Shown here piece after piece: positions 5,259-22,393 of a DNA stretch of 64,000 bases; position 1 is the first letter of the stretch, and each line of letters begins with the position of its first letter. The position numbers and the translations under genes were made by a program. The notes beneath the pieces are model-generated. The model did not search any database. It saw nothing but the letters and a program-made list of their open reading frames with translations, and was not told the origin of the DNA. The stretch is taken from positions 5,476-69,475 of the forward strand of contig CAZFHZ010000001.1 in the NCBI GenBank assembly GCA_964519015.1, written 5' to 3'. Source of the stretch: an uncultured Gemmatimonadota bacterium. Its GTDB lineage: Bacteria > Blakebacterota > Blakebacteria > Blakebacterales > CAYUVJ01.

Positions 5259-6896
5259 ATGACCGATAGACTCTGGCTGCGCCGCGATTTCACCAAGACG
5301 ATCCTGGCCGGACTCCCCCTGCTCTCCCTGGACTGGGACGCCTTCCCGACCGGACCGGGCCCGGATCAGGGGGGGGATGCTTACGATGCGGTCATCATCG
5401 GGGCGGGGCTGGGGGGGCTGAGCTGCGCCGCGGCCTTCGCCCGCCAGGGCTTCAAGCCCCTGGTCATCGAGCAGCACATCAAGCCGGGGGGTTACGCCAC
5501 GACCTTCTCCCGGCCGGGGGGATTCGTCTTCGACGTCTCCCTCCATTCGACGGCGGTGGAAGAGCGCGGCGGCCTGGCCAACCTCATCCCCGGCTTCCCC
5601 GAGATCGAGGAAGTGACCTTCGTCCCCCACCCCAACCTGGGCCGGGCGATCTTCCCCGACCACGACCTCCGCATCCCCCAGAAGGACCTCCCGGCCTTCA
5701 TCGACATGTTGTGCGGTCTCTTCCCCCAGGAGCGGGAGGGGATCGTCGGCCTGTTCGAGGATATGACGGGGCTGGTCGGAGACCTCAACCGGTACTCCCA
5801 GGCGCAGGGACGGTTCAATCCGGCCACCTTCCCCCAGGACTTCCCCTATCTCTTCAAGTCCTTCAACAAGACGTGGGGGGGGATGGTGGAGGCCCGCCTG
5901 ACCGATCCCCGGCTCAAAGCCATTGTCTCCTGGCAGTCGGGATACTACGGCCTGCCCCCTTCCCGCCTCTCCTGCTTCTACTACGTCATGCCGGTGATCG
6001 GCTACCTGACCCAGGGCGGCTACTACCCGCGAGGCCGTTCCCAGGCGATCAGCGACGCTCTGGTGCGGTTCATCGAGGCGCGCGGCGGCCGGGTCCTGCT
6101 CGGGACCCGCGTAGAGGGCATCGTGACCGAGGGGCATGCGGCCGTGGGCGTCCGCACCGGCGACGGGACCGTGTTCCGCGGGCGGGTGGTCGTCGCCAAC
6201 GCCAACGCCTGGGACACCTTCCATAGGATGCTGCCGCAGGAACAGGAGTTTCTGCAGGAATACCTGGCCAAGCTGGATACCTATGGAGTGAGTTTCTCCA
6301 TCTTCCAGGTCTTCCTCGGCCTGAAGAGCGACCTGGTCGGCCGGCTCGGTCTCACCGATTCGGAGATCTTCGTCGCGAACGGGTACGACCCGGAACAGGA
6401 ATTCCAGGACCTGACCCGGGCCGACACTCGGACCTGCGGCTACGGGGTGACCCTCTATGACAACCTCTACGCGGGCTACTCCCCGCCGGGCAAGAACACC
6501 ATCACCATCACCGCCGGCCAGAGTTACGATTACTGGGAGCGCTACGAAGCCGACTACCTCCAGGGCAACAAGGAGGCCTACCGGCGGGAGAAGGAACGGA
6601 TGGCCGATGAGCTGGTGCAGCGGGCGGAGGAAGCTCTGCTCCCCGGGCTCTCCGCGACGGTCGAGGTCCGGGAAGTGGCCACCCCGCTGACCAACCTGCG
6701 CTATACGAGCAACTACCGGGGAGCCGTCTACGGCTGGGACCAGACGGTGGACAACTCCGGCGCGAACCGCCTCCCCTGTACCACTCCGATCAAGGGGCTC
6801 TACCTGGCCGGCGCCTGGACCTTCCCCGGCGGCGGCTACGGTGCGGTCATCCCGAGCGGACTGGCCTGCTTCGCCGAGATCATGAAGGGCTGGTGA
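5259..6896 (+). CDS. Phytoene-desaturase-family (CrtI-like) FAD/NAD(P)-dependent oxidoreductase with a Tat signal.
   Basis: An N-terminal twin-arginine motif (LRRDFTKTILAG) is followed by the Rossmann dinucleotide fold DAVIIGAGLGGLSCAAAFARQG. An RBS GAGG lies upstream of the ATG at 5259. Confidence 0.85.
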   Translation: MTDRLWLRRDFTKTILAGLPLLSLDWDAFPTGPGPDQGGDAYDAVIIGAGLGGLSCAAAFARQGFKPLVIEQHIKPGGYATTFSRPGGFVFDVSLHSTAVEERGGLANLIPGFPEIEEVTFVPHPNLGRAIFPDHDLRIPQKDLPAFIDMLCGLFPQEREGIVGLFEDMTGLVGDLNRYSQAQGRFNPATFPQDFPYLFKSFNKTWGGMVEARLTDPRLKAIVSWQSGYYGLPPSRLSCFYYVMPVIGYLTQGGYYPRGRSQAISDALVRFIEARGGRVLLGTRVEGIVTEGHAAVGVRTGDGTVFRGRVVVANANAWDTFHRMLPQEQEFLQEYLAKLDTYGVSFSIFQVFLGLKSDLVGRLGLTDSEIFVANGYDPEQEFQDLTRADTRTCGYGVTLYDNLYAGYSPPGKNTITITAGQSYDYWERYEADYLQGNKEAYRREKERMADELVQRAEEALLPGLSATVEVREVATPLTNLRYTSNYRGAVYGWDQTVDNSGANRLPCTTPIKGLYLAGAWTFPGGGYGAVIPSGLACFAEIMKGW

Positions 6897-7939: not shown

Positions 7940-9506
7940 GATGGTCCTCCGGTGGTCCCTGCCCTGTAGAAGCCGCGGCCAGAGCCAATGCCGAGGGTGT
8001 CACAGCGATCCCCCCGAGGGCCGTGCAGCGCAGTTCCCGCGGCAACGCCTGTCCCACGGCATAGGAGGCATCGATCGTCTCATCGAGACCGATGGGGTTC
8101 TCATATCCGCCCAGGACCAGGTCGGCGACGACGAACGCCTGGGCGGCCGCCGCTGCATTCCGGGTATGGCATGGGATCTCGCAGCCTCCACCCACCGGAT
8201 CGCACACCGACCCCATCGTGTTCTGCAGGGCCACCGCGGCCGCATCAGCCGCCTGGCGGGCCGATCCGCCGAGTACCTCGACCACGGCCGCAGCCGCCAT
8301 CGCACCAGCGACGCCGATCTCCACCTGGCACCCGGCCGTCTCCGCTGCGAAGGTGGCCCGGTAGGCGACGATGAGCCCGACGGCGGAAGCAGCCATCAGG
8401 GCATCGGCGACGAGCCGGCGGTCCAACCCGCGTATCTCCTCCAGGGTGACGAGCACACCGGGCAGCACCCCGGCCGAGCCGCCGGTGGGGGCCGCGCAGA
8501 CCACACCCTTGCTGTTACAGGTGTGCATGACCGCCATGGCTCGGATGGCCGCGGCGGTGTGGGGTCCCCCGATCCCTTCGCCCCGTTCATATGCTGTCAG
8601 GATCCGTGCCGCGCTCGGACGGGTCATGGGCATCGCGACCTCCTGGTCGCGCAGGCCGGCCTCGAGGGAGGCTCTCATCACGTCGTAGCGGTGCAGGCAT
8701 TCCACCTCGACCTCCTCATCGGAGAGGTCGAGGAGCCGGGCTTCGTAATGACGGGCGGCCCGACCGAGCGACCAGCCGTTGGCGGCGGCCATCCGGAGCA
8801 TCTCGTCGGCCGAAGTGAACGATGACATTCCTCCCCGGGGGTGGAAGACCGGCCGGCAGCGGGCACGCACGCACACATCCGGAGCATCGGCGGCCAGGGA
8901 TCCGATCGTCGCCGTCGGATCCTCCGGGGCATCGATCTGCAGGAGCGTGCCCGTACCGGACTCCCGGACGACGACTTCCCCCACCCCGATGGCCCTGAGT
9001 CTCTCTCCGAGTCCCGCATCACCCGGAATGAGCGCCGCCCAGCTCTTACCATCGATCATCAACGGCCAGTCGTCATACCGGTAGACTTCGATCGCACCTC
9101 CGCCGACGGACCTCGCCCAGATCTCATGGTCATCCCCCGATTCGGTCCGGATCCGCAGCCGTACCGCATTGGGGTGGTCGGCGTGTTCGAGGGGCTCGAC
9201 GTCGAAGCGAAGGTCGATCCCGGCCTCCCGCACATCCTGCAGGGAACGGGGATAACGCGGGTCGGTCATCTCCCGGTCCAGGACGGCGCAGGCGATGGCC
9301 AGATCGACTCCCAGTGGCCGGTAGGTGGGAGCGTAGGAGCCTTCGGGATCGAAGCTGCAGCGGGTCACCCGGGGGCGTCCCCCCACCAGATCACAGGCCA
9401 GCCGGGCGATCCGATAGCCGCCGGCGGTATGGGAACTCGAAGGCCCCCGCATGACCGGACCCAGGACATCGTTGAAGATGCTGAGGAAGGGCGGAGGACT
9501 CGTCAT
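7932..9506 (-). CDS. sdaA: L-serine ammonia-lyase (dehydratase), iron-sulfur-dependent, single-chain beta-alpha fusion.
   Basis: A beta-type N-terminal domain (SIFNDVLGPVMRGPSSSHTAGG) and an alpha-type C-terminal domain (CAAPTGGSAGVLPG ... GCQVEIGVAGAMAAAA ... SVCDPVGGGCEIPC) are continuous in one frame. The start was chosen at MTSPPPF (9506). The ORF track extends upstream to 9842 without support. Confidence 0.85.
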   Translation of the reverse strand: MTSPPPFLSIFNDVLGPVMRGPSSSHTAGGYRIARLACDLVGGRPRVTRCSFDPEGSYAPTYRPLGVDLAIACAVLDREMTDPRYPRSLQDVREAGIDLRFDVEPLEHADHPNAVRLRIRTESGDDHEIWARSVGGGAIEVYRYDDWPLMIDGKSWAALIPGDAGLGERLRAIGVGEVVVRESGTGTLLQIDAPEDPTATIGSLAADAPDVCVRARCRPVFHPRGGMSSFTSADEMLRMAAANGWSLGRAARHYEARLLDLSDEEVEVECLHRYDVMRASLEAGLRDQEVAMPMTRPSAARILTAYERGEGIGGPHTAAAIRAMAVMHTCNSKGVVCAAPTGGSAGVLPGVLVTLEEIRGLDRRLVADALMAASAVGLIVAYRATFAAETAGCQVEIGVAGAMAAAAVVEVLGGSARQAADAAAVALQNTMGSVCDPVGGGCEIPCHTRNAAAAAQAFVVADLVLGGYENPIGLDETIDASYAVGQALPRELRCTALGGIAVTPSALALAAASTGQGPPEDHHA

Positions 9507-9736: not shown

Positions 9737-10915
9737 ATGCGCTGGACCTCTGATTCCTCCTTCTTCCACCTGCCTCCCTCGCTGCCAGCGGCCGCACTGA
9801 TCGTTTGGGTCGCGGTGCTCTCTGCGAGCGCCACCAGGGCACAACCGCTGCACCGGAGCGAACCGGAGGGTGCGGCTCGGCAGGCCGCAGCCCCCCGCCT
9901 GGTCGAGCGGGCCTCCTTCGTCGACCAGACCGAGGGGGGGAAGGCCATCCTCTACCGGCCCTCCTACTTCATCTTCGATCCGGACGGCAACGCCTACATC
10001 CCCGACCCTGGCGCCCATGCCATCCTGGTCTTCGACCGGGAACTCCGGCTGGTGCGCCGGATCGGCCGGGAAGGTGAAGGGCCGGGCGAGATGAAATGGC
10101 CCTGCGCGGTGCGGATGGCCTCCGATGGTTCGCTGGCGGTGCAGGATCCCGATAACCACCGCGTGAGCTACTTCTCGACCGCGGGAGCGTTCCTGCGCAG
10201 CGAGCGGTTCAGCCAGGGGCAGAGTTACACCCTGACCTCGAACGACGACTACATCCCGGTTCCGGGGGGCGGTTTCCTCAGAGTCGAGTGGATGTACTAT
10301 CAGGAGCGTCGCCGGACCCGGGAATCGGACCGCCCCCTGCTCGAGATCGTGGACCGGGAGGACCGGGTCACCCGGAGCCTGGGGAACCACCGCATGCACG
10401 AGGACAGACGGATCGCCAGCCTCCTGAGCAGTGTCGTCATCACGGTCTCTCCCTCGGCGAAGGTGGTCGCCGCCTTCGAGTACTCGCCGGAGATCCACGT
10501 GTACGACCTCGCCTCCGGTGTCCTTGAGCAGTCGATCATCCGCGAACTCGAGTTCAAACCGGCCGATCCCGCAGTCAAGGAAAGAACCTACCGTTCACCC
10601 GACGGGCTCACGACGAGCCGGCGGATCGAACCGGTGGCCGACACGGTGTCACTGGATGTGGCCATGGACAAGGAGGGACGGATCTGGGTGCTGACCCGAC
10701 GGGTCGATCAGGAGAAAGGGGACACCCTCGAGGCTGAAGAGCGGTTCGGTGAGTTGGTCAAGCTCGAGGTGCTGGGTCCGGACGGTCGACCGATCGCGTC
10801 CTGGCCCCTGGCCGATCCGGCCAGCCGGCTGGCGTTCGATCCGTTCGGGGACCTCTGGCTCATGGACCGCAGCTACAATATGACCATCCGGCGTTACGAG
10901 GTTGTCTGGCCTTGA
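9737..10915 (+). CDS. NHL-repeat / 6-bladed beta-propeller secreted protein.
   Basis: The signal peptide is AAALIVWVAVLSASATRAQ. NHL-like motifs include IFDPDGNAYIPD and GREGEGPGEMKWP. This is a paralog of the 18087..19157 product. Confidence 0.6.
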   Translation: MRWTSDSSFFHLPPSLPAAALIVWVAVLSASATRAQPLHRSEPEGAARQAAAPRLVERASFVDQTEGGKAILYRPSYFIFDPDGNAYIPDPGAHAILVFDRELRLVRRIGREGEGPGEMKWPCAVRMASDGSLAVQDPDNHRVSYFSTAGAFLRSERFSQGQSYTLTSNDDYIPVPGGGFLRVEWMYYQERRRTRESDRPLLEIVDREDRVTRSLGNHRMHEDRRIASLLSSVVITVSPSAKVVAAFEYSPEIHVYDLASGVLEQSIIRELEFKPADPAVKERTYRSPDGLTTSRRIEPVADTVSLDVAMDKEGRIWVLTRRVDQEKGDTLEAEERFGELVKLEVLGPDGRPIASWPLADPASRLAFDPFGDLWLMDRSYNMTIRRYEVVWP

Positions 10916-11934: not shown

Positions 11935-13539
11935 TCAGTCCCTTCCTTCGGTACCCGTCCGCAGCCGCCGGCGCAGCTCGAAAGGGTCGGCGCCGGGCAG
12001 GCCACGCACCCGGCTGCTGAGGGCGTCGAACAGCTCCTTCAGCCGGCGGTAGGTCTCCCGGTGGGCCGGCTCGGGCCGGCAGCGGCGGGTTTCCTCCGGC
12101 ACCACGAAGGGGGCGCAGACCTCGTCCAGCGAGACCTCCCGTCCCGCCTCCCGCTGCCACACCCAGGCGGCGTGCAGGGCCGCTCCCAGAGCGGCCCCCT
12201 CCCCCGGCACAGGCACGGTCTCCACCTCGAGCAGGTCGGCGATGGCCTGGCACCAGACCGCGGAACGGGAGAGCCCACCGGTCAGGTGGATGACCTCGGG
12301 AGTCACGGGCAGGCGGCGGGAGCCGGCCCAGAGGTTCAGGACATGCCCTTCCAGCACCGCCCGGCAGAGCACCTCGGGGCGCAGGTCCTCGGCCTGGAAT
12401 CCGAACAGGAGGGGAGCGGCCAGGGGCAGGTCGGGCGTGCGCTCACCTCCGTACCAGGGGAGCAGCACCCGGCCGAGGTTACCGGGGGGAGTACGCGCCA
12501 CCGCCGCCTCGAAAGCTTCGTGGTCGAGCCCATATTCGGCCCGGACCGCGGTGTAGCCGTTGGCCATGTTCGAGACACAGAGCAGGGGGAGGTAGCGGCC
12601 GGTGGCGTCGCAGAACGAGGCGATCTCCCCCTCGGGATCCACGAAGGGCTCCTCCAGCACTGTATAGGCGGTGCCGCTGGTACCCAGGCTCACGGTGACG
12701 ATGCCGGGGCGGATGTTCCCGGTCCCGACCGCCCCGTACATGTTGTCGCCGCTGCCGGCGTCGATTCGGCAGGCCGGGTCGAGCCCGAAGCGGGCGGCCA
12801 AGGCCGGTGTGATCACTCCGATGGTACGGTCGGAGGGGCCCACCGGCGGCAGCTTGGCGGCCACCTCGGGGCTTATGGCCGCCAGCACCCGAGGAGACCA
12901 GTCGCGGGTGAGCGGACTCCAGAGCGCGGTGCCGGAGGCATCCCCCGGCTCCATGGCGGCGATCCCGCCGTCCGGGCCGCCGGTCAGGTGCCAGTTGACG
13001 TAGTCGTGCGGGAGCAGCAGGAGGGCCGTCTCGGCCCAGACTTGCGGCTCGTGGCGGCGCAGGTGGAGGATCTTGGGCGCGGTGTAACCGGGACGCTGGG
13101 TGTTGCCGACCTCACGCAACATCGCCTCCCGGCCCCCCACCGCCTCGGTCAGCAGCCGGCACTCCTCGAGCGTGCTGTGGTCGCTCCACAGCTTGGCCCG
13201 GGAGCGGGCCAGCCGGCCCGCGGCATCGAGCGCCACCAGCCCGTGCTGCTGCCCCGAGACCGAGAGGCAGCGGATGCGCCCGGCGGGCACCTCGGACGCC
13301 CTGAGTCGCTCCAACAGGGTCTCGACCGCTTCCAGCCACATCAGCGGGTCTGATTCACAGACCCCCTCCCCCAGCCCCGGCACCACCCCCTCGCGGGTTC
13401 CGTAACTAGCCAGGTCGGAATCGTAGGAGAGGGTGTCGTGGAAGAGGATTGCGCCGGCCGCCGGATCGATGACGACCAGCTTGGTGCTCTGGGTCGAAAC
13501 GTCCAGGCCGGCGAAGAGGTCCGTCCCGGCGGCGTTCAT
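11935..13539 (-). CDS. FGGY-family carbohydrate kinase (xylulokinase-like).
   Basis: The start is MNAAGTDLFAGLDVSTQSTK. FGGY N- and C-domain blocks are present (HGLVALD, GTSGT, HLTGGLSRS). The 980-aa ORF in the track is an artefactual 5' extension overlapping the MFS gene. Confidence 0.8.
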   Translation of the reverse strand: MNAAGTDLFAGLDVSTQSTKLVVIDPAAGAILFHDTLSYDSDLASYGTREGVVPGLGEGVCESDPLMWLEAVETLLERLRASEVPAGRIRCLSVSGQQHGLVALDAAGRLARSRAKLWSDHSTLEECRLLTEAVGGREAMLREVGNTQRPGYTAPKILHLRRHEPQVWAETALLLLPHDYVNWHLTGGPDGGIAAMEPGDASGTALWSPLTRDWSPRVLAAISPEVAAKLPPVGPSDRTIGVITPALAARFGLDPACRIDAGSGDNMYGAVGTGNIRPGIVTVSLGTSGTAYTVLEEPFVDPEGEIASFCDATGRYLPLLCVSNMANGYTAVRAEYGLDHEAFEAAVARTPPGNLGRVLLPWYGGERTPDLPLAAPLLFGFQAEDLRPEVLCRAVLEGHVLNLWAGSRRLPVTPEVIHLTGGLSRSAVWCQAIADLLEVETVPVPGEGAALGAALHAAWVWQREAGREVSLDEVCAPFVVPEETRRCRPEPAHRETYRRLKELFDALSSRVRGLPGADPFELRRRLRTGTEGRD

Positions 13540-14780
13540 ACTCTCCCCCCTTCTCCATTGCCGAGCCGCACCAGCCGGCCGATGGCGGCGATCCCGGCCG
13601 CCGGCCCCAGGGCCAGCACCGGGAAGCTCCAGCGCCAGCCGACACTGGCCACCAGCACCGGGATGAGCTGGATGCTGGCCATGGTCAGCAGAAAACCGAG
13701 CGAGGTCTGCAGGGTCAGGGCGGTGCCCACCGCGTGCCGGGGAGCCACCTCGGTCACGATGGCGCTGAACTGGGCGGAGTCGGCCACCACGAAGAAGCCC
13801 CAGACCCAGGCCAGCGGGGCGAGCACCCAGAGCACGCCCGTCCCGCTGCCCCCGATTCCAAAGAAGAGACCGATCAGCAGGGCACAGACACCGCTGGCCA
13901 TCATCGCCCCGTTGACCAGCCTCTCCCTGCCCACTCGGTCGGCCACCCACCCTCCCCAGACACAGCCCGCCCCGCCGGCGCCGATGGCCCCGAAGGCGAC
14001 CAGGTCGACCAGCCTGCCGGCATCCCCGGCCGGGGTGAGCGTGTGAAGGGCGCTCTCCCCGGCCACAGCCGCGGCCAGGAAGGCGGGCACCCAGGTCCAC
14101 ATGGCGTAGAGTTCCCACATGTGCCCCAGGTAACCCCCCACCGCCAGGCGGGTCGGCCGGTGCCGTATCACCTCCGCGGCCAGGGCCCAGTGGAAAGGGC
14201 GCTGCTCGAAGGGATAGGGACCGTTCCGGTAACCGGTCGCCACCATCAGGGCGGCCGCCACCGCCCCGGCCGAAGCGGTCAGGACCACTCCGCCGAAGCC
14301 CTCCGGGATGAGCGCGCAGACCAGCCAGGGGCCCGCCTTGCCCACCGTGAGCGCCCCCACCACCGTCCCGATGGCCAACCCCCGCGCGGAACGGAACCAG
14401 GTGGCGATCATCTTCATGGCCGGGGGATAGACCCCGGCCAGAAAGAAACCGGTCAGGAAGCGCCAGAGCATGGCCGGGCCGAAACCGGGGACGGCCACCA
14501 GCAGGGCGTTGGCGGCCGCCGCCAGCAGAGCGCAGGCGGCGAAGTAAGCCCGCTCGGGAAGGAGGTCGGCCAGGTTGAGCAGGGCGGCGGTCAGGGTGCC
14601 GGCCACGAAGCCGAGCTGGACCAGGGTGGTCAGCCAGCCGGTCTGGGCCGGGGTCAGCCCCCAGAGTCCCTGGAGCCGCGGGGCCACCGCGCTGGCGGTA
14701 AACCAGAGGGACATACCGAGCAGTACGGCGGCCGAGAGGAGGGCAAGCTGGCGCCAGCGGGCGGGGTGGTCGTCGCGCAT
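13536..14780 (-). CDS. MFS transporter.
   Basis: The predicted structure is a 12-TM MFS. The start MRDDHPARWRQLALL lies at 14780 and overlaps the FGGY start by ATGA. The first 15 codons are duplicated at 19157. Confidence 0.8.
   Translation of the reverse strand: MRDDHPARWRQLALLSAAVLLGMSLWFTASAVAPRLQGLWGLTPAQTGWLTTLVQLGFVAGTLTAALLNLADLLPERAYFAACALLAAAANALLVAVPGFGPAMLWRFLTGFFLAGVYPPAMKMIATWFRSARGLAIGTVVGALTVGKAGPWLVCALIPEGFGGVVLTASAGAVAAALMVATGYRNGPYPFEQRPFHWALAAEVIRHRPTRLAVGGYLGHMWELYAMWTWVPAFLAAAVAGESALHTLTPAGDAGRLVDLVAFGAIGAGGAGCVWGGWVADRVGRERLVNGAMMASGVCALLIGLFFGIGGSGTGVLWVLAPLAWVWGFFVVADSAQFSAIVTEVAPRHAVGTALTLQTSLGFLLTMASIQLIPVLVASVGWRWSFPVLALGPAAGIAAIGRLVRLGNGEGGRV
14736..14780 (-). repeat. 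Copy A of a ~45-bp direct repeat carrying a start codon and N-terminal codons (MFS gene 5' end).
   Basis: The sequence gaggagggcaagctggcgccagcgggcggggtggtcgtcgcgcat matches 19111..19157 with 4 substitutions/indels. Confidence 0.8.
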
Positions 14781-14841
14781 GGGGAGAGGATAGCGCGCCC
14801 GTGGGACACCGTCGCCACCCGGGTGATATTTTAACGACCGC

Positions 14842-14847
14842 TTGACA
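14842..14847 (+). promoter_or_regulatory. Candidate -35 hexamer (TTGACA) in the AT-rich leader upstream of the hydrogenase small subunit.
   Basis: TTGACA lies about 110 nt upstream of the ATG at 14958, in an unusually AT-rich stretch (gggtgatattttaacgaccgcttgacaatccg). I found no convincing -10 at 17±1 nt. Confidence 0.2.
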
Positions 14848-14957
14848 ATCCGCAGCCCGGATAGGAGAGTGTGGCAAATATCACAAGTTCTGCCGGCCAT
14901 CCACCCGTTTTCTACACCTGTGCCTCAACGACGTGCGAGAGGCAAGGAGGCTACTCT

Positions 14958-15911
14958 ATGTCCCGGATCTCCCGGCGGGAGTTCATGGACTGGATCGGAC
15001 GGGCGGGCACATCCGCTGCCCTGCTGGAGGTGCTGCCGCCCGGCATCCTGGAAGCGCTCCAGCAGGCGGTCAAACAGTACCCCCTCATCTGGCTCCAGCT
15101 CTCAAACTGTTCCGGCTGCTCGGTGTCGGCCATCAATACGATCCACCCCAACATCGAGAACGTGCTGCTCGACCAGATCATCCCCAACTACCAGCTCTCG
15201 CTCCGCTTCCAGCAGACCGTGATGTCGGCCTCCGGGGAACTCGCCATGCAGGCCCTCGACGAGACGCACCAGGAATGGAAGGGGAAGTACATCCTCATCG
15301 CCGAGGGAGCCGTTCCGACCAAGGAAAACGGCATCTTCGGACACATGGGGGAAAGTCAGGGGCGTCCGAGGACGCTGGCGGCGCACGTCCGGGAGCTAGC
15401 TCCGGACGCGCTGGCCATCCTGGCGCTCGGCACCTGTGCCTCCTACGGCGGTATCTCCGCCGCGGCACCCAACACAACCGGCTGCGTCGGGGTCGGGGCC
15501 TTTCTCGCCCAGGAGGGCATCACCACACCGTTGATCAACATCCCCGGCTGTCCCGCCCACCCCGACTGGTTCATCGGCACGGTCGCCCACGTTCTTCTGC
15601 TGGGTCTGCCCAAACCCGAGGAGGTCGACCAGCACGGCCGCTTGAAGCTCTTCTACGGATCAACCGTCCACCGGGCGTGCACCAACCGCGACTACATGGA
15701 CGAAGGGATCATGGCCCAGAAGCCCGGCCAGATCGGCTGCCTGCTGGAACTGGGCTGCAAGGGTCCCTTCACCATGGCGGACTGCCCCCGGCGTTCCTGG
15801 AACTCGGGGGTGAACTGGTGCATCGGCTCAGGTGGCCCCTGCCTGGGCTGCACCGAACCGGGATTCCCGGACGAGTTCTGCCCCTTCCTTACGATCAAGC
15901 AGGAGAACTGA
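14958..15911 (+). CDS. [NiFe]-hydrogenase small subunit with a twin-arginine signal, of the soluble periplasmic type (no C-terminal membrane anchor).
   Basis: A Tat motif ISRREFMDWIGRAG sits in the N-terminus. The proximal cluster block is PLIWLQLSNCSGCSVS. C-terminal Cys/His ligand sets are HRAC...C...C and C..GPC. An RBS AGGAGG precedes the ATG at 14958. Confidence 0.9.
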   Translation: MSRISRREFMDWIGRAGTSAALLEVLPPGILEALQQAVKQYPLIWLQLSNCSGCSVSAINTIHPNIENVLLDQIIPNYQLSLRFQQTVMSASGELAMQALDETHQEWKGKYILIAEGAVPTKENGIFGHMGESQGRPRTLAAHVRELAPDALAILALGTCASYGGISAAAPNTTGCVGVGAFLAQEGITTPLINIPGCPAHPDWFIGTVAHVLLLGLPKPEEVDQHGRLKLFYGSTVHRACTNRDYMDEGIMAQKPGQIGCLLELGCKGPFTMADCPRRSWNSGVNWCIGSGGPCLGCTEPGFPDEFCPFLTIKQEN

Positions 15912-15914
15912 GCG

Positions 15915-17405
15915 ATGCCAGCTCCCGTAACCATCAGACTGGATCCGATCACCCGGATCGAAGGACACCTGAGCGTCGAAAGCGTGGTGGACGAGGGAGA
16001 GGTGAAGGAAGCCCACGTCTCGGGCACCCTCTTCCGCGGCTTCGAGAACATGATCCTCGGACACTCGCCGCTCGACGTCATCCAGTTCGCTCAGAGATTC
16101 TGCGGGGTCTGCCCCACCGCCCACGCCATCGCCAGCGCCCAGGCGCTGGACATGGCTCTGGGGATCGTGCCGACCGAGAACGGCCGGGTCATCCGGAACC
16201 TGGTCGGCGGCGCCAACTGGATACAGTCGCACCTGCTCCACTTCTACACGCTCTCGGCCCTCGACTACTTCCCCGGTCCCTACACCCCCCCGTTCATCCC
16301 GCGCTTCGAGGGGGACTACCGGCTCCCCAAGGCCCTCAACGATGATCTTCTCAATCACTACATCCTGGCCCTCTCCATGAGGTTGAAAGCGCACGAACTC
16401 TCGGCGGTCTTCTCCGGGAAGATGCCCCACAGCGCCTCCATCGTCCCCGGCGGCGTCACCATCCAGCCGACGGTGGACAAGGTGACCACCTTCCTGTGGC
16501 GGCTGCGGGAACTGCGCGACTTCATCGACAACTACTACCTGCCCGATGTCATCGCGGTCGCCCGCGTGTACCAGGACATGCTCGAGCAGGGGCGGGGGCC
16601 GGACCGTCTTCTCACCTACGGTTCGTACGACCTCAATACTGAAGCGGACGTGACCCACCGCCGGCGGCTGCTTCAGATGGGCCGCCTGGTCAGCGGACGG
16701 GTGGAGAGCTTCGACCCGGCCAAGATCACCGAGGAGGTCCGGAACAGCTGGTACACCGACTCGGGACCCCGCTCTCCCCGGGAAGGGAGAACGGTCCCCA
16801 TGACGGGCAAGTCGGGCGCCTACAGCTGGGTGAAGGCCCCCCGCTACGAAGGAGAGGTCTACGAGGTCGGCCCGACGGCACGGGTGCTCTGCACCGCGCT
16901 CTCCGGAGAGAGCCCGGCCATGACGGCCATCACCGACCATGTCCTCTCGGAACTCCGGGCCGTCCCCGAGGTATTCCATTCCACCATGGGGCGGCATCTC
17001 GCCCGGGCCATCGAGACGAAATTCGTGGCCGACGCCATGAGCGAATGGATCATGGAGTTCCGGCTGGGCGAGCCGGTCTGCGCCGACTTCAAGATCCCGG
17101 ACCAGGCCTCCGGTATGGGCCTGTGGTGCGCACCGCGGGGAGCACTGGGACACTGGCTCGACATCGAGGAGGGGAAGGTGAGCCGCTACCAGGCGATCGT
17201 GCCGACCACCTGGAATTGTTCCCCCCGCGACGACCAAGGGACGCCCGGTCCGCTGGAGCAGGCGCTGGTGGGAACGCCGGTCAAGGACACCGACAATCCC
17301 ATCGAGGTGCTCCGGGTGGTCCACTCGTTCGATCCCTGCGTCGCCTGCGCGATCCACGTGCTGGACGCCCGGCGGAACGAGCGCCTGGCCTTCCGGGCCT
17401 GCTGA
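15915..17405 (+). CDS. [NiFe]-hydrogenase large subunit, group 1 by L1/L2 motifs.
   Basis: The N-terminal motif is QRFCGVCPTAHAIASAQALD. The C-terminal motif LRVVHSFDPCVACAIH is followed by a 15-aa cleavable extension VLDARRNERLAFRAC. The gene starts 4 nt after the small subunit stop and is preceded by AGGAGA. Confidence 0.9.
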   Translation: MPAPVTIRLDPITRIEGHLSVESVVDEGEVKEAHVSGTLFRGFENMILGHSPLDVIQFAQRFCGVCPTAHAIASAQALDMALGIVPTENGRVIRNLVGGANWIQSHLLHFYTLSALDYFPGPYTPPFIPRFEGDYRLPKALNDDLLNHYILALSMRLKAHELSAVFSGKMPHSASIVPGGVTIQPTVDKVTTFLWRLRELRDFIDNYYLPDVIAVARVYQDMLEQGRGPDRLLTYGSYDLNTEADVTHRRRLLQMGRLVSGRVESFDPAKITEEVRNSWYTDSGPRSPREGRTVPMTGKSGAYSWVKAPRYEGEVYEVGPTARVLCTALSGESPAMTAITDHVLSELRAVPEVFHSTMGRHLARAIETKFVADAMSEWIMEFRLGEPVCADFKIPDQASGMGLWCAPRGALGHWLDIEEGKVSRYQAIVPTTWNCSPRDDQGTPGPLEQALVGTPVKDTDNPIEVLRVVHSFDPCVACAIHVLDARRNERLAFRAC

Positions 17406-17439
17406 GGGAGAAACGGCCGGCGGCCGGGAGCGGGGGGAC

Positions 17440-17910
17440 TCACTCCTCCTGCAGCCGGCGGGCCTCCTCGCGGGCGGCCTGCAGCAGGGCCGGGAGGGCG
17501 CCGGAGACGGGCCGGCTGAGCCGCGACCGGCCCGTCGCGAGCCGGTCCGGCTCCACACCCAGGAGCACCCCGCGCAGGGGACGTCCCAGCAGGCGCGCCT
17601 GCTGCAGCAGGTGGCGCACGCCCAGTTCGTGCACCGAGAGGGGGACCCCGACGGGGTCGCCGATCTCCTCCAGCGGGAGGCGGTGGATCGTACCGGGCGG
17701 GCTCCCGGCCCGGACGGCGTCCAGGAGCACCACCTTCTCCTCCGGTTCCAGGAAGGCCAGCAGGTCGACGCCGAGCGTCCCGGCCTCGAGCAGACGCACC
17801 CCCGGCGGCAGGCCTCCTTCGTCTCTGAGCCCCTCCACGGCCAGCACCCCGACAGCGTCGTCGCCGCCCAGCAGCTGGCCGATCCCGACGACGGCTACCG
17901 ATCTCGGCAT
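17440..17910 (-). CDS. Hydrogenase maturation endopeptidase (HyaD/HybD family), convergent to the structural genes.
   Basis: The start is MPRSVAVVGIGQLLGGDDAVGV..., which resembles the HybD N-terminus. The protein is ~156 aa. Confidence 0.7.
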   Translation of the reverse strand: MPRSVAVVGIGQLLGGDDAVGVLAVEGLRDEGGLPPGVRLLEAGTLGVDLLAFLEPEEKVVLLDAVRAGSPPGTIHRLPLEEIGDPVGVPLSVHELGVRHLLQQARLLGRPLRGVLLGVEPDRLATGRSRLSRPVSGALPALLQAAREEARRLQEE

Positions 17911-18086
17911 CTGCTGCGGGTCAGGCATGCGAAGCCATCCGGGCAGGAGCCCTCTGCTAATGCTGACTCGGTGAACGCGCCACCTCGATCCCGGCATGCA
18001 TGGGAGGGAGGATAACCCCCGGGGGGGACGCCGTCGCCCCTCAGATCAAGCTGCAGATCGCTCAACTCCTGTTCAGAGAGGCGATG

Positions 18087-19157
18087 TCATCTAAAGAAGG
18101 TGGTCGGAAGGTCCAGCCGCGCGATCGAGCCCAAGCGCCGTGAAACGAAGAAAGCCCTGTTCCCGACCACCGTGATGTCTCCGGCTTCCAGTGAAACAGA
18201 GCTATTGACATGAGTGCTCTTGACAATGGTCCCGTCTTGGCGAAGTCGGATGGCTCTCCCGCCCATGGTGACAATGAAACCGTCATCGCATCGGCCAAAA
18301 CTCACTGAGACGTCCTTGGGACCTCTCGCGTTCGTGTATTCCTGTCGCAGAGAGTCGAACGGGTAGGCCTCCTGAGAGGTCAGAATATCCTTGAGGATCC
18401 TTTGCGTCGACTTGTCCGCTCCCACGAATGCTCCCGACCAATCTACCCGTACTTCGGACTTGAGTTGCGAATCGGCGTACACCCGGAGCGTGGACCAGAA
18501 GGTGCTCAGGGCCGCAAAGGTGCTATCATCAATTCTTGCCATTCGCGTGAATCCCGCGATCCGCCACTGACCGCGATTCGGGGTCACGGACTGCCCGAAC
18601 GTGCGGACGATCTCCCCCTCGGCGTTGAGTTCCACGATGTGATAGTCTTCGGAATCCGTAGCCAGCATGATTCTGTCCACTCCGATGATGACCATGTCGA
18701 ATACTTGGTTCACCAAATGAACCTGAGTAATGAGATTGCCGTCGAGGTCGTACAGGACGAGCCTCCCCAGCCCATTGTCAGCGAGGGCCAGCACTCTCGA
18801 TCCGACCGCGATGCAGGAATGGTCACCTCCCCTCTTGTCGAACTCGAACTCACCGGGACCTGAACCCCGACCCAGGCGCTGCCATCGAAAGCTCAAATCC
18901 GCGTTCAGACATATGATTCCAGATAACGCGGCATCCAGTAGGTAGATGTTCCCGAGGCTGTCGTGGTCGATGGAAACCGGAAGCCCGAACGATTCGAACT
19001 TTCCAGAAACGCTGTATCCGTCCAGGTTGGTCGAGCCTATCGCTGCCGTATCTACGCTACCTGCCCTTTCACAACCTGTCGCCAGGATCGGAATAGCGAC
19101 CACGAATACGAGGAGCAGGGCGAGCTGGCGCCAGCGGGCCGGGGGGTCGTCGCGCAT
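18087..19157 (-). CDS. NHL-repeat / beta-propeller putative lipoprotein, compositionally atypical (low GC).
   Basis: The signal is MRDDPPARWRQLALLLVFVVAIPILATGC. The NHL-like motif is GRGSGPGEFEF. The gene body is visibly lower in GC than its neighbours. The first 15 codons duplicate the MFS start. Confidence 0.6.
   Translation of the reverse strand: MRDDPPARWRQLALLLVFVVAIPILATGCERAGSVDTAAIGSTNLDGYSVSGKFESFGLPVSIDHDSLGNIYLLDAALSGIICLNADLSFRWQRLGRGSGPGEFEFDKRGGDHSCIAVGSRVLALADNGLGRLVLYDLDGNLITQVHLVNQVFDMVIIGVDRIMLATDSEDYHIVELNAEGEIVRTFGQSVTPNRGQWRIAGFTRMARIDDSTFAALSTFWSTLRVYADSQLKSEVRVDWSGAFVGADKSTQRILKDILTSQEAYPFDSLRQEYTNARGPKDVSVSFGRCDDGFIVTMGGRAIRLRQDGTIVKSTHVNSSVSLEAGDITVVGNRAFFVSRRLGSIARLDLPTTFFR
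19111..19157 (-). repeat. Copy B of the ~45-bp direct repeat (lipoprotein gene 5' end).
   Basis: The sequence gaggagcagggcgagctggcgccagcgggccggggggtcgtcgcgcat is in the same orientation as copy A, 4.3 kb away. Confidence 0.8.
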
Positions 19158-19161
19158 GCGC

Positions 19162-20544
19162 TCAGGTCCCTGGTCTTAATCCTCTGAGGTAGGCCAGGTA
19201 CCCGCTGTTGAGCGCCTTCCACTTCCGGATGATGGCCTTGGCCTGGAGCTTGACGAAAGCGCTCTCCAGGGAAGGGACCCGGAAGCCCGACAGCAGTGAG
19301 GTGGTCACCCCGCGGGCCGTCTCGAAGACGATGTTGAGGGAGTCGTTCATGACCGCGACCAGGGAGTAGAAGTCCTGGAAGGCCTGCAGCGTCCCCTCCT
19401 GGAGTTCGGAGGGGGTGAAGTTGAGAGGACGGTACACGGCGTGCATGCCGTCGTAGAAGCTCCACATCCGGTGGAGGAGCCGGCCCTCCTTTTCCATCCG
19501 CTTGAAGAACCCGGTCCCCGGCAGGGGGGTCAGGATCATGAACTGGACCGAGCTGAGACGGCTCTTCCGGCAGAAGGCGGCGGTCTCGCGGAAGAGGGCG
19601 GCGTCTTCCTCGTCGCTGCCGAAGATGAACATGCCGTGGATGCTGATCTGATGGGCGTGGAAGACCTCGATCGCCGCCCGGACGTCCTCGGGGGACTGCC
19701 GCTTGTTCATCCCCTCCAGGGTGGCGGGATCGATCGATTCGAAGCCGATGTAGACCCGCAGGCAGCCGGAGCGGCGCATCTTGGCGACCAGTTCGCGGTC
19801 GCGGGTGATATCGGCCCGCACCTGGGCCGTCCACTTGAGTCCCATCTTCCGCCGGATCATCTCGTCCAGCAGGGCGTGGGTCCGCTTCGGGTTGGCCGCG
19901 AAGTTGTCGTCGTAGAAGAAGATCTGGCGGGTCGGGGCCCGCTCCAGGTCCTCGAGCACCCGGGCCGGCGAATGGGTCCGGTAGCCGCGTCCGAACATCT
20001 CGGTCACCGCGCAGAAGTTACAGTCGTAGGGGCAGCCTCGTGAGGTGACCACCGGCGTGATGTTGAGCCGCTCCCGGCCCAGCAGGAGACCGAAGTCGGG
20101 GCTGGGGACCACGTCCAGGTCGCGCAGCCGGGGCCCGGCGACCACCCGCTCGCCGCCGTGCCGGAGCAGGTCGACGATCACCTGCTCCCCTTCCCCGACC
20201 ACCACGTGGTCGGCGCACTCGGCCGCCTCCTCGGGCAGGAAGGAGGGATGGATGCCCCCGATGACGATCTTCCGCCCGGGATACAGGTCGCGGAAGGTAC
20301 GGGCGATTTCGTAGCCTCGCTCGGCGGTCGGGGTGAGCAGACTGAGCAGCAGGAAATCGGTGTCGAGCTCGGCCAGGGTGACGTCGCGGTGCAGCAGGTT
20401 CTCATTGATGATCCGCACCTCGAAACCCGCCTGCTGGAGGATCGTGCCCAGGTAGAGCGGACCCATGAGGGGGAGGTGGAGGTAGTCGGCGAAGACGTTG
20501 GCCTTGACGCCGCGCGGTTCGACGATGAGCACTCGTTTCTTCAT
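19162..20544 (-). CDS. B12-binding-domain radical SAM protein.
   Basis: An N-terminal B12-binding-like domain is followed by the radical SAM CxxxCxxC motif in TSRGCPYDCNFCAV. The gene ends 4 nt before the downstream lipoprotein start. Confidence 0.85.
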   Translation of the reverse strand: MKKRVLIVEPRGVKANVFADYLHLPLMGPLYLGTILQQAGFEVRIINENLLHRDVTLAELDTDFLLLSLLTPTAERGYEIARTFRDLYPGRKIVIGGIHPSFLPEEAAECADHVVVGEGEQVIVDLLRHGGERVVAGPRLRDLDVVPSPDFGLLLGRERLNITPVVTSRGCPYDCNFCAVTEMFGRGYRTHSPARVLEDLERAPTRQIFFYDDNFAANPKRTHALLDEMIRRKMGLKWTAQVRADITRDRELVAKMRRSGCLRVYIGFESIDPATLEGMNKRQSPEDVRAAIEVFHAHQISIHGMFIFGSDEEDAALFRETAAFCRKSRLSSVQFMILTPLPGTGFFKRMEKEGRLLHRMWSFYDGMHAVYRPLNFTPSELQEGTLQAFQDFYSLVAVMNDSLNIVFETARGVTTSLLSGFRVPSLESAFVKLQAKAIIRKWKALNSGYLAYLRGLRPGT

Positions 20545-21026
20545 GACGACTCCTTACGGTCGGGCCGCGCGATCAGGAGCAGGCAGCCGCCGAAGAGGAC
20601 CAGGGAGATGGGCCAGAGACGGGGATCCACGGTGGCTACCAACAGGAACACCCCGCAGATCAGAAGCAGGCCGAGGGCGATGGGGAGGAAGATGCGGCGC
20701 CATCTCCCCCCGAGGACCGGGCCGATGAAGGCCAGCCCCAGGAAGCCGATGAAGAGCGGCCAGAGGTCTCCCAGCAGGGTCCAGGAGGTGTAGTTGAGGA
20801 AGAAGAAGAGGAACGCACAGCAGACCAGATAGATCCCCAGGCCCATCAGGAGCGTGTCCCGGCGGGCCTGGTGGAAGTAGAGCAGGAGGAACCCGGCGCC
20901 CAGGATGAGCGGGAAGAGCGGCCAGAGCCGCCAGAAGCCGTGCACGATCCCGTAGCTCTCCAGGATGAGGATCAGGCCGGAGAGGATGGAGAGGACGGCG
21001 ATCACACCTGTGGCCGGTCGGCTCAT
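20541..21026 (-). CDS. Small polytopic membrane protein, function unknown.
   Basis: The 161-aa protein has 4-5 hydrophobic helices. It overlaps the rSAM start by ATGA, so the two are translationally coupled. Confidence 0.5.
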   Translation of the reverse strand: MSRPATGVIAVLSILSGLILILESYGIVHGFWRLWPLFPLILGAGFLLLYFHQARRDTLLMGLGIYLVCCAFLFFFLNYTSWTLLGDLWPLFIGFLGLAFIGPVLGGRWRRIFLPIALGLLLICGVFLLVATVDPRLWPISLVLFGGCLLLIARPDRKESS

Positions 21027-21199
21027 CGCTCTATTCCTCGGGGGGGCTCCTCGGGAACCCTACCCCCGCCCCGGCAGGGTGTCAAATCCACCAACGGGTC
21101 CCGTTGACCCCCCCCCGGGCGTTCGCTACCTTGCCGTCCGGCCGCGCGGGCCTGTCCCGCCGAGCCCGCATCCACGCACCAGCAAGGAGCCGCGCCCCG

Positions 21200-22393
21200 A
21201 TGGCCCAACGCACCATCGTCGCGATGCCGGGAGACGGCATCGGCAAGATCGTCCTGGCCGAGGCCATCCGTGTCCTGGACGCGGTCGGATTCGACGCCGA
21301 ATACGTCCATGGCGATATCGGCTGGGAGTTCTGGTGCCACGAGGGAGATGCCCTCCCCGAACGCACCATCGAGCTACTCAGGCAGCACAAGATCGGACTC
21401 TTCGGCGCCATCACCTCGAAACCGAAGGACGAGGCGGACGCCGAGCTCGATCCCGCTCTGAAGGGGAAGGGGTATGTCTACTACAGCCCGATCGTGGGAC
21501 TGAGGCAGGTCTTCGACCTGGACGTCTCGGTCCGCCCCTGCATCTCCTTTCCCGGAAACCCGCTCAACTTCGTGCGGCGGAGCCGGGATGGTTCGATCGA
21601 GGAGCCTTTCGTCAACGCGGTCATCTTCCGCCAGAACACCGAAGGGCTCTACAGCGGGGTGGAGTGGACCGACCCGCCGCCGGCCGTACGGGCCGCCCTG
21701 GAAAGCCACCCCAAGTTCAAGCCCTTCCGGGAAGTCCCCGGACCCGACCTGGCCGTCTCCACCCGTATCTTCAGCCGGGGCGCCTGCCGCCGGATTGTCG
21801 AGGCCGCCTTCGCCTATGCCCGCGAGTTCGGCTACCGTTCGGTGACCGTGTGCGAGAAGCCCAACGTGATCCGCGAGACCAGCGGGATGATGGTCAAGGA
21901 GGCCCGCCGGGTCGCCCAGCGCTATCCCGGCATCGCCCTCTGGGAGACCAACATCGACGCCCAGACGATGTGGCTGACCAAGAACCCGGAGGACTACGGA
22001 GTGATCGTGGCCGGCAACATGTTCGGCGACATCATCTCGGACGCCTTCGCCGGCCTGGTCGGCGGGCTTGGCTTCGCCGCCTCCTCGAACGAGGGGCAGG
22101 AAGTGGCGGTGTTCGAACCGACCCACGGCTCGGCCCCCAAGTACGCCGAGCTGGAGCCCAGCATCGTCAACCCGATCGCCATGTTCCTGTCGGCCGCCCT
22201 GATGCTCGACCGGCTCGGGGAGCGGGAGAAGGCCGACCGGGTGCGCCGGGCCATCGCCAGGGTGGTGAAGGAAGGGCGGGTCCGGACCTACGATATGATG
22301 AAGATCGCCGGGGGACCGAAAGCGATCGCACAGGGGGCGGCTTCGACCGAACAGATGACCGAGGCCGTGATCGCGGCCCTGGGCCGCGACTGA
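21200..22393 (+). CDS. Isocitrate/isopropylmalate dehydrogenase family protein (beta-decarboxylating dehydrogenase).
   Basis: The start MAQRTIVAMPGDGIGKIV is preceded by AAGGAG. Family blocks include LRQVFDLDVSVRP and GNMFGDIISDAFAGLVGGLG. Confidence 0.85.
   Translation: MAQRTIVAMPGDGIGKIVLAEAIRVLDAVGFDAEYVHGDIGWEFWCHEGDALPERTIELLRQHKIGLFGAITSKPKDEADAELDPALKGKGYVYYSPIVGLRQVFDLDVSVRPCISFPGNPLNFVRRSRDGSIEEPFVNAVIFRQNTEGLYSGVEWTDPPPAVRAALESHPKFKPFREVPGPDLAVSTRIFSRGACRRIVEAAFAYAREFGYRSVTVCEKPNVIRETSGMMVKEARRVAQRYPGIALWETNIDAQTMWLTKNPEDYGVIVAGNMFGDIISDAFAGLVGGLGFAASSNEGQEVAVFEPTHGSAPKYAELEPSIVNPIAMFLSAALMLDRLGEREKADRVRRAIARVVKEGRVRTYDMMKIAGGPKAIAQGAASTEQMTEAVIAALGRD

Follow-up and report, generated by a model that had tools for sequence, protein, structure and literature searches.

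Integrative elements that target the 5' ends of genes include the dusA-specific elements (PMC8409611) and the SXT/R391 elements in prfC (PMC2791158). Their cargo lies within the 5' end of a housekeeping-type target gene, between direct repeats of this end; the gene-proximal copy brings a promoter and a start codon, the gene stays functional, and relatives show a single-copy site. The same outline recurs at the locus described here, which lies in a 64-kb stretch of DNA (64,000 nucleotides (nt); hereafter the window) from an uncultured Gemmatimonadota bacterium (assembly GCA_964519015.1, contig CAZFHZ010000001.1). In it, two direct copies of the start of a major facilitator superfamily (MFS) transporter gene bracket a [NiFe]-hydrogenase module and the body of a lipoprotein gene.

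The locus also resembles what is known of homology-facilitated illegitimate recombination, which is documented for bacteria with natural competence and for conjugation in E. coli (PMC3240628). As in that process, one joint would be homologous, in the MFS gene or in U, the element directly upstream of it, and one would be illegitimate, between MFS nt 45 and the hydrophobic h-region of the lipoprotein signal peptide; the process requires no genes of mobile elements, and the flanks are as in a closely related strain. Like integron cassette arrays, finally, the locus has promoterless cargo behind resident expression signals and a short recurrent sequence following each unit, and the cargo varies between related genomes at one fixed site.

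We consider the repeat to be a true segmental duplication of MFS nt 1-45 that marks an insertion built by recombination at the 5' end of the gene, a reading to which we give a probability of roughly 0.75. A preliminary description of this DNA, made from the sequence alone, had likewise proposed that an insertion or recombination duplicated the MFS gene start. Three results now speak for that proposal: the repeated motif is native to the MFS family, a related contig has the single-copy junction, and the family to which the lipoprotein belongs has signal peptides of its own.

Results

A repeat search of positions 14000-20000 returned one 46-nt direct repeat, at 14736-14781 and 19113-19158, in which 42 of 46 positions (91%) are identical; the copies are spaced 4377 nt start to start and enclose 4331 nt. 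This agrees with the ~90% identity over ~45 nt, in direct orientation and 4.3 kb apart, that had been reported for the two gene starts. On the minus strand each copy consists of 1 nt, an ATG and 14 further codons, and the translations, MRDDHPARWRQLALL for the MFS copy and MRDDPPARWRQLALL for the lipoprotein copy, both fit the common N-terminus given earlier, MRDD[H/P]PARWRQLALL. Three of the four differences between the copies are synonymous and the fourth is H5P, while the longest exact runs common to both are 17 and 14 nt. The gene calls of the NCBI record have both starts too, for proteins of 414 and 356 aa (exact look-up).

The preliminary description had suggested a search for further copies. 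Within the 64 kb of the window, a degenerate 41-mer made from both copies and allowed up to three mismatches matched these two sites only, and it had 0 matches in 100 dinucleotide-preserving shuffles. Scans of genome and metagenome contig collections with a degenerate 45-mer also gave 0 matches, a result that is uninformative on further copies in the source genome. The MFS start of a related contig (L001, below) fits the 45-mer pattern yet was not returned, so the collections appear to hold no samples of the close relatives. Inside each repeat copy there is a perfect 12-nt palindrome, GCTGGCGCCAGC (14751-14762 and 19128-19139), which encodes part of RWRQ and is gone in orthologs with RWRI.

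Read along the minus strand, the locus consists of a B12-binding radical SAM gene (rSAM), 4 nt, the MFS start (nt 1-45) fused to the body of an NHL lipoprotein gene, a second element called U', the genes HycI, HydL and HydS, the element U, and the MFS start with the whole MFS gene. Pfam agrees with the earlier account of the gene content, in which the hydrogenase genes, a convergent protease gene and the lipoprotein body lie between the copies; an FGGY kinase gene is also among the neighbours identified by Pfam. The features are as follows.

13536..14780, minus strand: MFS transporter gene, 414 aa, intact, with its own U element upstream (Pfam MFS_1).
14736..14781, minus strand: S_right, the downstream repeat copy and native start of the MFS transporter gene.
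14781..14826, minus strand: U, the 46 nt that immediately precede the MFS ATG.
14827..14957, no strand assigned: 131-nt unique stretch between U and the HydS start, with no homolog in any fetched locus.
14958..15911, plus strand: HydS, [NiFe]-hydrogenase small subunit (Pfam PF14720 and PF01058), with a Tat-like SRREFM motif.
15915..17405, plus strand: HydL, [NiFe]-hydrogenase large subunit (Pfam PF00374); HydS and HydL converge on HycI.
17440..17997, minus strand: open reading frame (ORF) for a HycI-type hydrogenase maturation protease (Pfam PF01750).
17998..18038, minus strand: U', GGCGACGGCGTC-N12-TATCCT-CCCTCCC-ATGC, between the lipoprotein stop and HycI.
18087..19157, minus strand: chimeric lipoprotein gene, 356 aa; residues 1-15 MFS-derived, residues 16-30 the rest of the signal peptide, the remainder an NHL-type propeller.
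18087..19112, minus strand: lipoprotein body, foreign by base composition.
19113..19158, minus strand: S_left, the upstream repeat copy, now the lipoprotein start codon, n-region and first four h-region residues.
19158..19164, minus strand: rSAM stop TGA (19162-19164) and 4-nt spacer GCGC, followed by the lipoprotein ATG (sequence).
19162..20544, minus strand: rSAM, the B12-binding radical SAM gene (Pfam).
20541..21026, minus strand: LiaF-TM-like gene (Pfam), which with rSAM forms an upstream operon of 19162..21026.

The repeated motif belongs to the transporter. All MFS orthologs at 65-91% identity carry ...PARWRxLALLS, and (D/H)PxRWRxLALLS is kept in orthologs down to ~50% identity. In its longer form, ...(D/H)PxRWRxLALLS.AELLGMSLWF, the motif is the start of the first transmembrane helix (TM1), and it also occurs in 75 more distant metagenomic loci. 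The sequence of S_right likewise opens the MFS gene in relatives that have no insert; the gene start of L001 reads ATGCGCGACGACCACCCCGCCCGCTGGCGTCAGCTCGCCCTGCTC, and that of contig L010 is the same but for a GTG and three changes. S_left has two private substitutions and differs from the MFS starts of these relatives at 3 (L001) and 5 (L010) positions. The motif is thereby shown to be native to the MFS family. A widespread leader found on many genes, which had been named as a finding that would undermine an insertion, is not what the searches returned: the motif was seen on this MFS family only, as part of TM1. Among distant MFS loci from metagenomes (n=80) there were no hydrogenase, lipoprotein, DJ-1 or FGGY neighbours, and 2 of the 80 have a radical SAM gene upstream that is 28-29% identical.

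Relatives of the rSAM protein at >=90% identity were present in metagenomes of the JGI. In four of these contigs (L001-L004) the gene order is LiaF-TM, rSAM, DJ-1/PfpI, MFS, an RND efflux operon, HEPN/nucleotidyltransferase and FGGY. In contig L010, the rSAM gene is followed directly by the MFS gene (...GGGACC TGA GGGC GTGCGCGACGACC...), with a stop, 4 nt and a start (TGA GGGC GTG). Neither a hydrogenase nor a lipoprotein gene was found in any of L001-L004 or in L010. The rSAM gene of L010 is 92% identical to that of the window at the nucleotide level, and BLAST showed L010 to be colinear with window positions 20828-19113 (91.6%) and 14779-13570 (89.3%). On L010 the two alignments overlap by 44 nt, and the overlap is the repeat; thus 4331 nt plus one repeat copy constitute an indel relative to L010. 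The preliminary description had pointed out that without the 4.3-kb segment the rSAM stop would be 4 nt from the MFS start, and had proposed a search for an rSAM-MFS junction in relatives that lack the hydrogenase. L010 has exactly this layout.

Overall identities are nearly star-like, at 93-94% between L010 and L001, 89-92% between L010 and the window, and 89-91% between L001 and the window. The closest species-level genome with the rSAM gene is an uncultured Gemmatimonadota metagenome-assembled genome (MAG) at 70% identity. Exact-sequence contig look-ups of the lipoprotein, MFS and HydL of the window gave no match, the proteins being present in the clustered collection.

In L001-L004, the slot between rSAM and MFS holds the DJ-1 gene. 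Its start (L001 11513-11529) is ATGCGC-TCAT-GACGACC, in which 4 inserted nt interrupt the first 13 nt of the MFS gene and create the DJ-1 ATG. Although a post-hoc observation, the pattern occurred nowhere else in 748 kb searched on both strands, and the DJ-1 start may be another remnant of the MFS start. A decayed MFS start directly after rSAM in L001-L004 was considered and rejected as not significant: in shuffle tests, p was ~0.4-0.99 with real MFS starts and reached 0.01-0.05 with S_left alone. The L004 spacer at 5917-5969 (CCCCCCGGTACCGGTGGGGCC) resembles only window positions 19122-19163, by way of the two private substitutions of S_left, and this resemblance is probably due to chance; BLAST carried the L004 homology on to window position 19122.

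Could the repeat be an artefact, either of a contig chimera formed at the repeat or of chance or convergent similarity between hydrophobic leaders? The assembly is of the metagenome type, with an NCBI contig of 82 kb, the proteins are single-member each, and the lipoprotein junctions have been seen only once. Against this, the identity of 42/46 exists at the DNA level and includes most third positions, shuffles gave 0 matches, and S_left has its two private substitutions. The exact shared runs of 17 and 14 nt would be too short for k-mer assembly collapse or a chimera. In addition, independent assemblies from other samples give both flanking junction types, that of rSAM with the start in L010 and that of U with the start in L001-L004, and a chimera inside the repeat would still require a real molecule with a fusion of the start to the lipoprotein. 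We therefore consider an artefact very unlikely.

The lipoprotein is a divergent protein. An exhaustive HMMER search of 1.84 billion representative proteins found 116 remote homologs, the best at 30% identity, while a word-indexed search of 5.8 billion proteins for close homologs returned the protein itself alone. No donor context was found by tblastn against all fetched loci, and the protein has no Pfam or NCBIfam match (it is below the Pfam threshold). Among 12 aligned family members, 10 match PF17170 and 5 match PF01436. In an AlphaFold (AF2) model (pLDDT 79.7, pTM 0.78), residues 7-26 form an N-terminal helix, confidence is low over residues 25-55, and a propeller follows; the best Foldseek matches in the PDB are the NHL domains of Thin, Brat, TRIM71 and TRIM2 (probability 1.0, target-normalised TM ~0.7). 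On the basis of the homologs and the model, we describe the protein as a predicted divergent NHL-type six-bladed beta-propeller lipoprotein. It shares the NHL-type fold with the DUF5128/NHL propeller lipoprotein family, whose members are ~340-370 aa long and have a signal peptide with a lipobox Cys and a GxGPGEF motif. It stands apart in that it is at most 30% identical to any of the 1.84 billion representative proteins and in that its first 15 residues are not of this family but from an MFS transporter.

Its signal peptide reads MRDDPPARWRQ / LALLLVFVVAIPI / LATG-C30 and fits an n-region, an h-region and a lipobox, as predicted for a lipoprotein processed by Sec and signal peptidase II. The relatives of similar size (339-373 aa) each have their own short leader of the form M-(K/R/S/T)...hydrophobic...Cys, and their lipobox Cys aligns with C30 of the window protein. 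If the 15 borrowed residues are taken away, only LVFVVAIPILATGC remains before the lipobox Cys, with no start codon and no charged n-region; the sole internal start candidate is a GTG at codon 19, which would leave ten residues. Because the gene has no start codon or charged n-region of its own, the lipoprotein depends on the duplicated MFS start. The earlier suggestion that it borrows this start for its n-region thus holds, given that the signal peptides of its remote homologs are unrelated. The gene was also rightly called low in GC: its GC content is 0.58 and its GC content at third codon positions (GC3) is 0.69, compared to a GC3 of 0.87-0.91 for all neighbours including the hydrogenase genes, and it occupies the lowest-GC kilobase of the window.

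A further gene for a DUF5128-type beta-propeller is present in the window at 9737-10915 (plus strand) and has a host-like composition. In the 70%-related Gemmatimonadota MAG (contig L011), two ORFs with a GPGEF/GPGPQEF motif, at 3102-4304 (plus strand) and 8058-9332 (minus strand), flank the LiaF-TM-rSAM pair, and one of the two has a lipoprotein-like N-terminus. The DUF5128-type family may therefore be recurrently linked to the LiaF-TM-rSAM operon.

We also observed a second repeat, U/U', which is new here and absent from the preliminary description. U consists of GGCGACGGYGTC, 12 nt, TATCCT, six C-rich nt and the ATG, so that a -10-like box (TATCCT) is positioned 6 nt before the MFS ATG in the layout of a leaderless-type promoter. 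The composite U pattern occurs at only two sites in the window (0 expected), and these sites bracket HydS-HydL-HycI. In a local alignment, U' and U agree at 29-30 of 37 positions (~80% identical, p<=0.001), with the agreement concentrated in the two boxes; the U 12-mer alone, with one mismatch allowed, is found at chance level. S_left and U' exactly enclose the lipoprotein body, and U' and U exactly enclose the hydrogenase module. Since U and U' bracket the hydrogenase module alone and the composition of the lipoprotein gene differs, the 4.3-kb segment seems to hold at least two separate insertions.

The element U is common to the window and to L001-L004, where it is found 20 nt after the DJ-1 stop, and it is not in L010. 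Contig L022, whose MFS gene is an 85% ortholog, has a diverged U upstream of that gene (GGCCGGCGTC-N12-TATCAT-N6-GTG) and 565 nt of upstream sequence without similarity to rSAM. Of 75 distant MFS orthologs, 14 have a TANNNT box at a distance of 5-8 nt from the in-frame start that follows it, compared to 0-8 in displaced control windows. These comparisons give moderate support to U as the native promoter of the MFS transporter. Three candidates were rejected: a decayed MFS start after U' (p=0.89), a U-like sequence in the rSAM-DJ-1 spacer of L001 (p=0.73), and U as a general promoter motif, given that the composite is present only at the two window sites and once per L001-L004 locus. A sigma-70 promoter and terminator consensus scan of 14600-19400 gave 0 sites. 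Just upstream of the MFS promoter region of L022, at ~497-545, there is a perfect 24-nt tandem duplication (CGGCGGTCGACCGGATCCCGGGGC), preceded by ~450 nt of lower-GC, apparently non-coding DNA that extends to the contig end.

With U', the locus has three partial copies of one promoter-start unit: S_left (nt 1-45), U' with ATGC, and U with the whole gene. Tandem gene duplication is a common process, and it is conceivable that the whole promoter-start-MFS unit was duplicated in tandem and that the upstream copies were then mostly replaced or deleted, first by the lipoprotein and then by the hydrogenase module, leaving as 5' stubs S_left and U' with ATGC. The three partial copies have the same orientation, and the intact state of the MFS gene would be explained if insertions hit redundant copies, where they are neutral. 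But no remnant of the MFS coding sequence is seen past nt 45 in S_left or, as tested above, past the ATGC after U', and no relative with tandem MFS copies was seen among the loci examined. A tandem duplication also leaves unexplained why S_left is exactly 4 nt after the rSAM stop and has no U of its own, as in L010. On balance, we think this history improbable.

The hydrogenase module has a twin-arginine small subunit, a large subunit and a maturation endopeptidase, as expected from its sequence for a Group 1-type periplasmic [NiFe]-hydrogenase; the NCBIfam models NF033181 and TIGR00391 score 618.7 (cutoff 600) and 240.8 (cutoff 179.5). The GC3 values of HydS, HydL and HycI (0.87-0.88) are near those of the host genes (0.89-0.91). 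Similar three-gene modules elsewhere have 72-76% nucleotide identity and unrelated neighbours and are never found with the lipoprotein or MFS gene, and the nearest HydL relatives are 78-88% identical. The contigs with related modules carry proteins labelled Gemmatimonadota, Palauibacterales or Eisenbacteria, and no bracketing repeats were found around hydrogenase modules in these other genomes. No hyp maturation genes were present among the genes scanned in the 64-kb window; because the module comprises structural genes and the protease only, the accessory genes must lie elsewhere.

The 131-nt unique stretch presumably holds the hydrogenase promoter and 5' untranslated region. The longest HycI ORF opens at 17997, directly after U', and the ATG at 18001 gives a frame of only 14 codons. 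Homologs of HycI are 156-176 aa, and the ORF reaches the conserved VAVVGIGQ core only at its residue 34, which points to a later start; the real start is probably the ATG at 17928 or 17910. Elsewhere in the window, a multihaem cytochrome gene is found at 55556-57253. In contig L007, where the large subunit is labelled Palauibacterales, an 82-83-nt tandem unit (3942-4125; 96-98% identical) is present upstream of the hydrogenase small-subunit gene.

We searched the segment for signs of mobility. No tRNA genes were found in the 64-kb window, Rfam gave nothing meaningful for 13400-21200, and the repeat search found no inverted repeats that pair the segment ends. The segment showed neither the terminal inverted repeats nor the transposase of a transposon or insertion sequence, and its duplication is 45-46 nt versus 2-15 bp for those elements. 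Of the features of an integrative element, the flanking repeats and the single-copy site are present, the latter with the qualification that the L010 site is possibly a secondary deletion, whereas no integrase was found and no fixed crossover is seen.

These results bear on whether the segment is the remnant of a site-specific integrative element, or of a cis-mobilizable cassette, that targeted the 5' end of the MFS gene. The start copies would then be attL and attR, the element would have restored its target with its own promoter (U) and N-terminal coding sequence, and the recombinase would have disappeared or be supplied in trans. Consistent with this, the cargo lies between direct repeats, the site is single-copy in relatives, the downstream copy combines a promoter-like element with a start codon, and relatives hold a different cargo, DJ-1, in the same slot, with a start that resembles the first 13 MFS nt plus a 4-nt insertion. 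Yet neither the 4.3-kb segment nor the candidate genes scanned across the 64-kb window (Pfam) revealed an integrase, excisionase or transposase domain, and the annotated 21 kb of L001 has none either. Furthermore, the junctions vary, occurring after MFS nt 45 for the lipoprotein, nt 4 on the side of U'-ATGC and HycI, and possibly nt 13 for DJ-1 in L001-L004; these differing positions disfavour a site-specific recombinase. U appears to be native to the MFS gene and not element-borne, the same cargo at this site was found in no other genome, and the repeats are already 9% diverged. We regard such an element as unlikely. Compared with the dusA and prfC elements, the locus has no tyrosine recombinase, excisionase or transfer genes, and the segment is only 4.3 kb and composite. 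The repeat of 45 nt, 9% diverged, is not a short identical core, and the promoter-distal copy is not dead DNA but now serves a cargo gene as its start.

The variable junctions also allow one to ask whether the unit of U and the MFS start is a recurrent site of cargo capture in a Gemmatimonadota-like lineage, integron-like but without a known integrase. Each incoming gene would be fused to the start codon already in place, and the transporter would regain a new promoter-start copy in front of it. The three cargos would be the NHL lipoprotein (at nt 45), the HycI/hydrogenase module (at nt 4) and, in the relatives, DJ-1/PfpI (at nt 13). Unlike integrons, the locus showed no IntI and, short of a detailed look at attC folding, no attI or attC site. 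What recurs is a promoter with the start of a resident gene, the junction positions vary, and the hydrogenase unit has three genes and its own divergent promoter region. We give a capture site of this kind little credence.

A second variable slot was seen on the other side of the MFS gene (window 13536-13570; L001 13362-20482; L010 2881-9189; L022 1847-9662). The MFS stop of the window and the FGGY start overlap (GTATGA), and the last ~11 codons of the MFS gene are unlike those of relatives, with the final ones crossing the FGGY ribosome-binding region. In L001, L004 and L010 the slot contains an RND efflux operon; L001 and L004 also have HEPN and nucleotidyltransferase genes before FGGY, for ~7 kb overall. 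In L022 the slot contains two PadR-MacB pairs and a GH172 gene.

Discussion

The locus is best described as a composite islet built by recombination in a variable slot between conserved genes, where an incoming gene has captured the start of a resident one. It refines the proposal of the preliminary description in two respects: the segment is composite, and L010 may represent a secondary deletion and not an untouched ancestral site. The order of events, the route of recombination, the translational coupling and the promoter activity discussed below are deductions from the sequence.

In the present arrangement, translation of the lipoprotein would begin at the duplicated MFS ATG, which lies 4 nt beyond the rSAM stop, a position that bears out the earlier claim that the rSAM operon is now joined to the lipoprotein gene. 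The gene would plausibly gain transcription from the rSAM operon and coupling by termination and reinitiation, in the same geometry as the MFS gene in L010. The signal peptide would be a chimera, with MRDDPPARWRQLALL from MFS helix 1 followed by LVFVVAIPILATGC from the lipoprotein family. The MFS transporter is still intact and would be driven by U. U', which points toward HycI, could drive that gene.

We suggest that at least two events gave rise to this arrangement. The older one would have placed HydS-HydL-HycI beside the MFS promoter and duplicated U; it looks older since U' and U are more diverged than the orthologous U elements of the window and L001, and since the composition of the module is host-like. 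In the younger event, the low-GC lipoprotein body would have been fused in frame to an MFS start directly behind rSAM. This event looks younger because the start copies differ at 4 of 45 positions, which is about the orthologous divergence, and because the gene is still compositionally foreign.

The route that we prefer is recombination with DNA of a related strain, with one end anchored by homology in U or in the MFS gene and the other end joined illegitimately, either by homology-facilitated illegitimate recombination or by integration of a circle via short homology. Unlike the described cases of homology-facilitated illegitimate recombination, the illegitimate joint would fall inside the anchor gene and so give a duplication, and the process is deduced here from its end product alone. 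No donor haplotype was found. The single-copy allele of L010 could be either the recipient state or the product of a later recombination between the start copies. Since U seems native to the MFS gene, yet L010 is without U, the rSAM/start junction is probably derived. It is also possible to read the window as a recombinant between L010-like and U-bearing haplotypes.

Several points weigh against an insertion of the kind that we favour. The window cannot have arisen from L010 by a gain of purely foreign DNA, as the incoming DNA must have brought U and an MFS start with it. L010 is slightly closer to L001 than to the window, which conflicts with the shared junction in a simple tree unless the lineages recombine. 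The junctions of the 45-nt start with the lipoprotein and of the lipoprotein with U' have been seen in one assembly only, and the homology available for a crossover is short, at 45-50 nt. Finally, the match between U' and U is mainly that of GGGCGACGGCGTC and TATCCTCCC, with a poor 12-nt spacer, so that U' could be a convergent promoter.

The case is a well-documented and fairly ordinary genome rearrangement. It reveals no new molecular machine or mechanism, and its value is that of a clean natural example of gene-start capture together with a variable slot. The junction sequences are specific markers for the presence or absence of the hydrogenase among close populations in metagenomes. One chromosomal site has three alleles: empty, with DJ-1, and with hydrogenase and lipoprotein. 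In an uncultured high-GC lineage, the locus illustrates how an existing operon may become wired to a foreign lipoprotein gene and to a compact periplasmic [NiFe]-hydrogenase module. An acquired gene with no start of its own would become expressible through a resident start codon, coupling and half a signal peptide from a transporter helix, and the transporter would meanwhile be preserved by the duplicated promoter and start.

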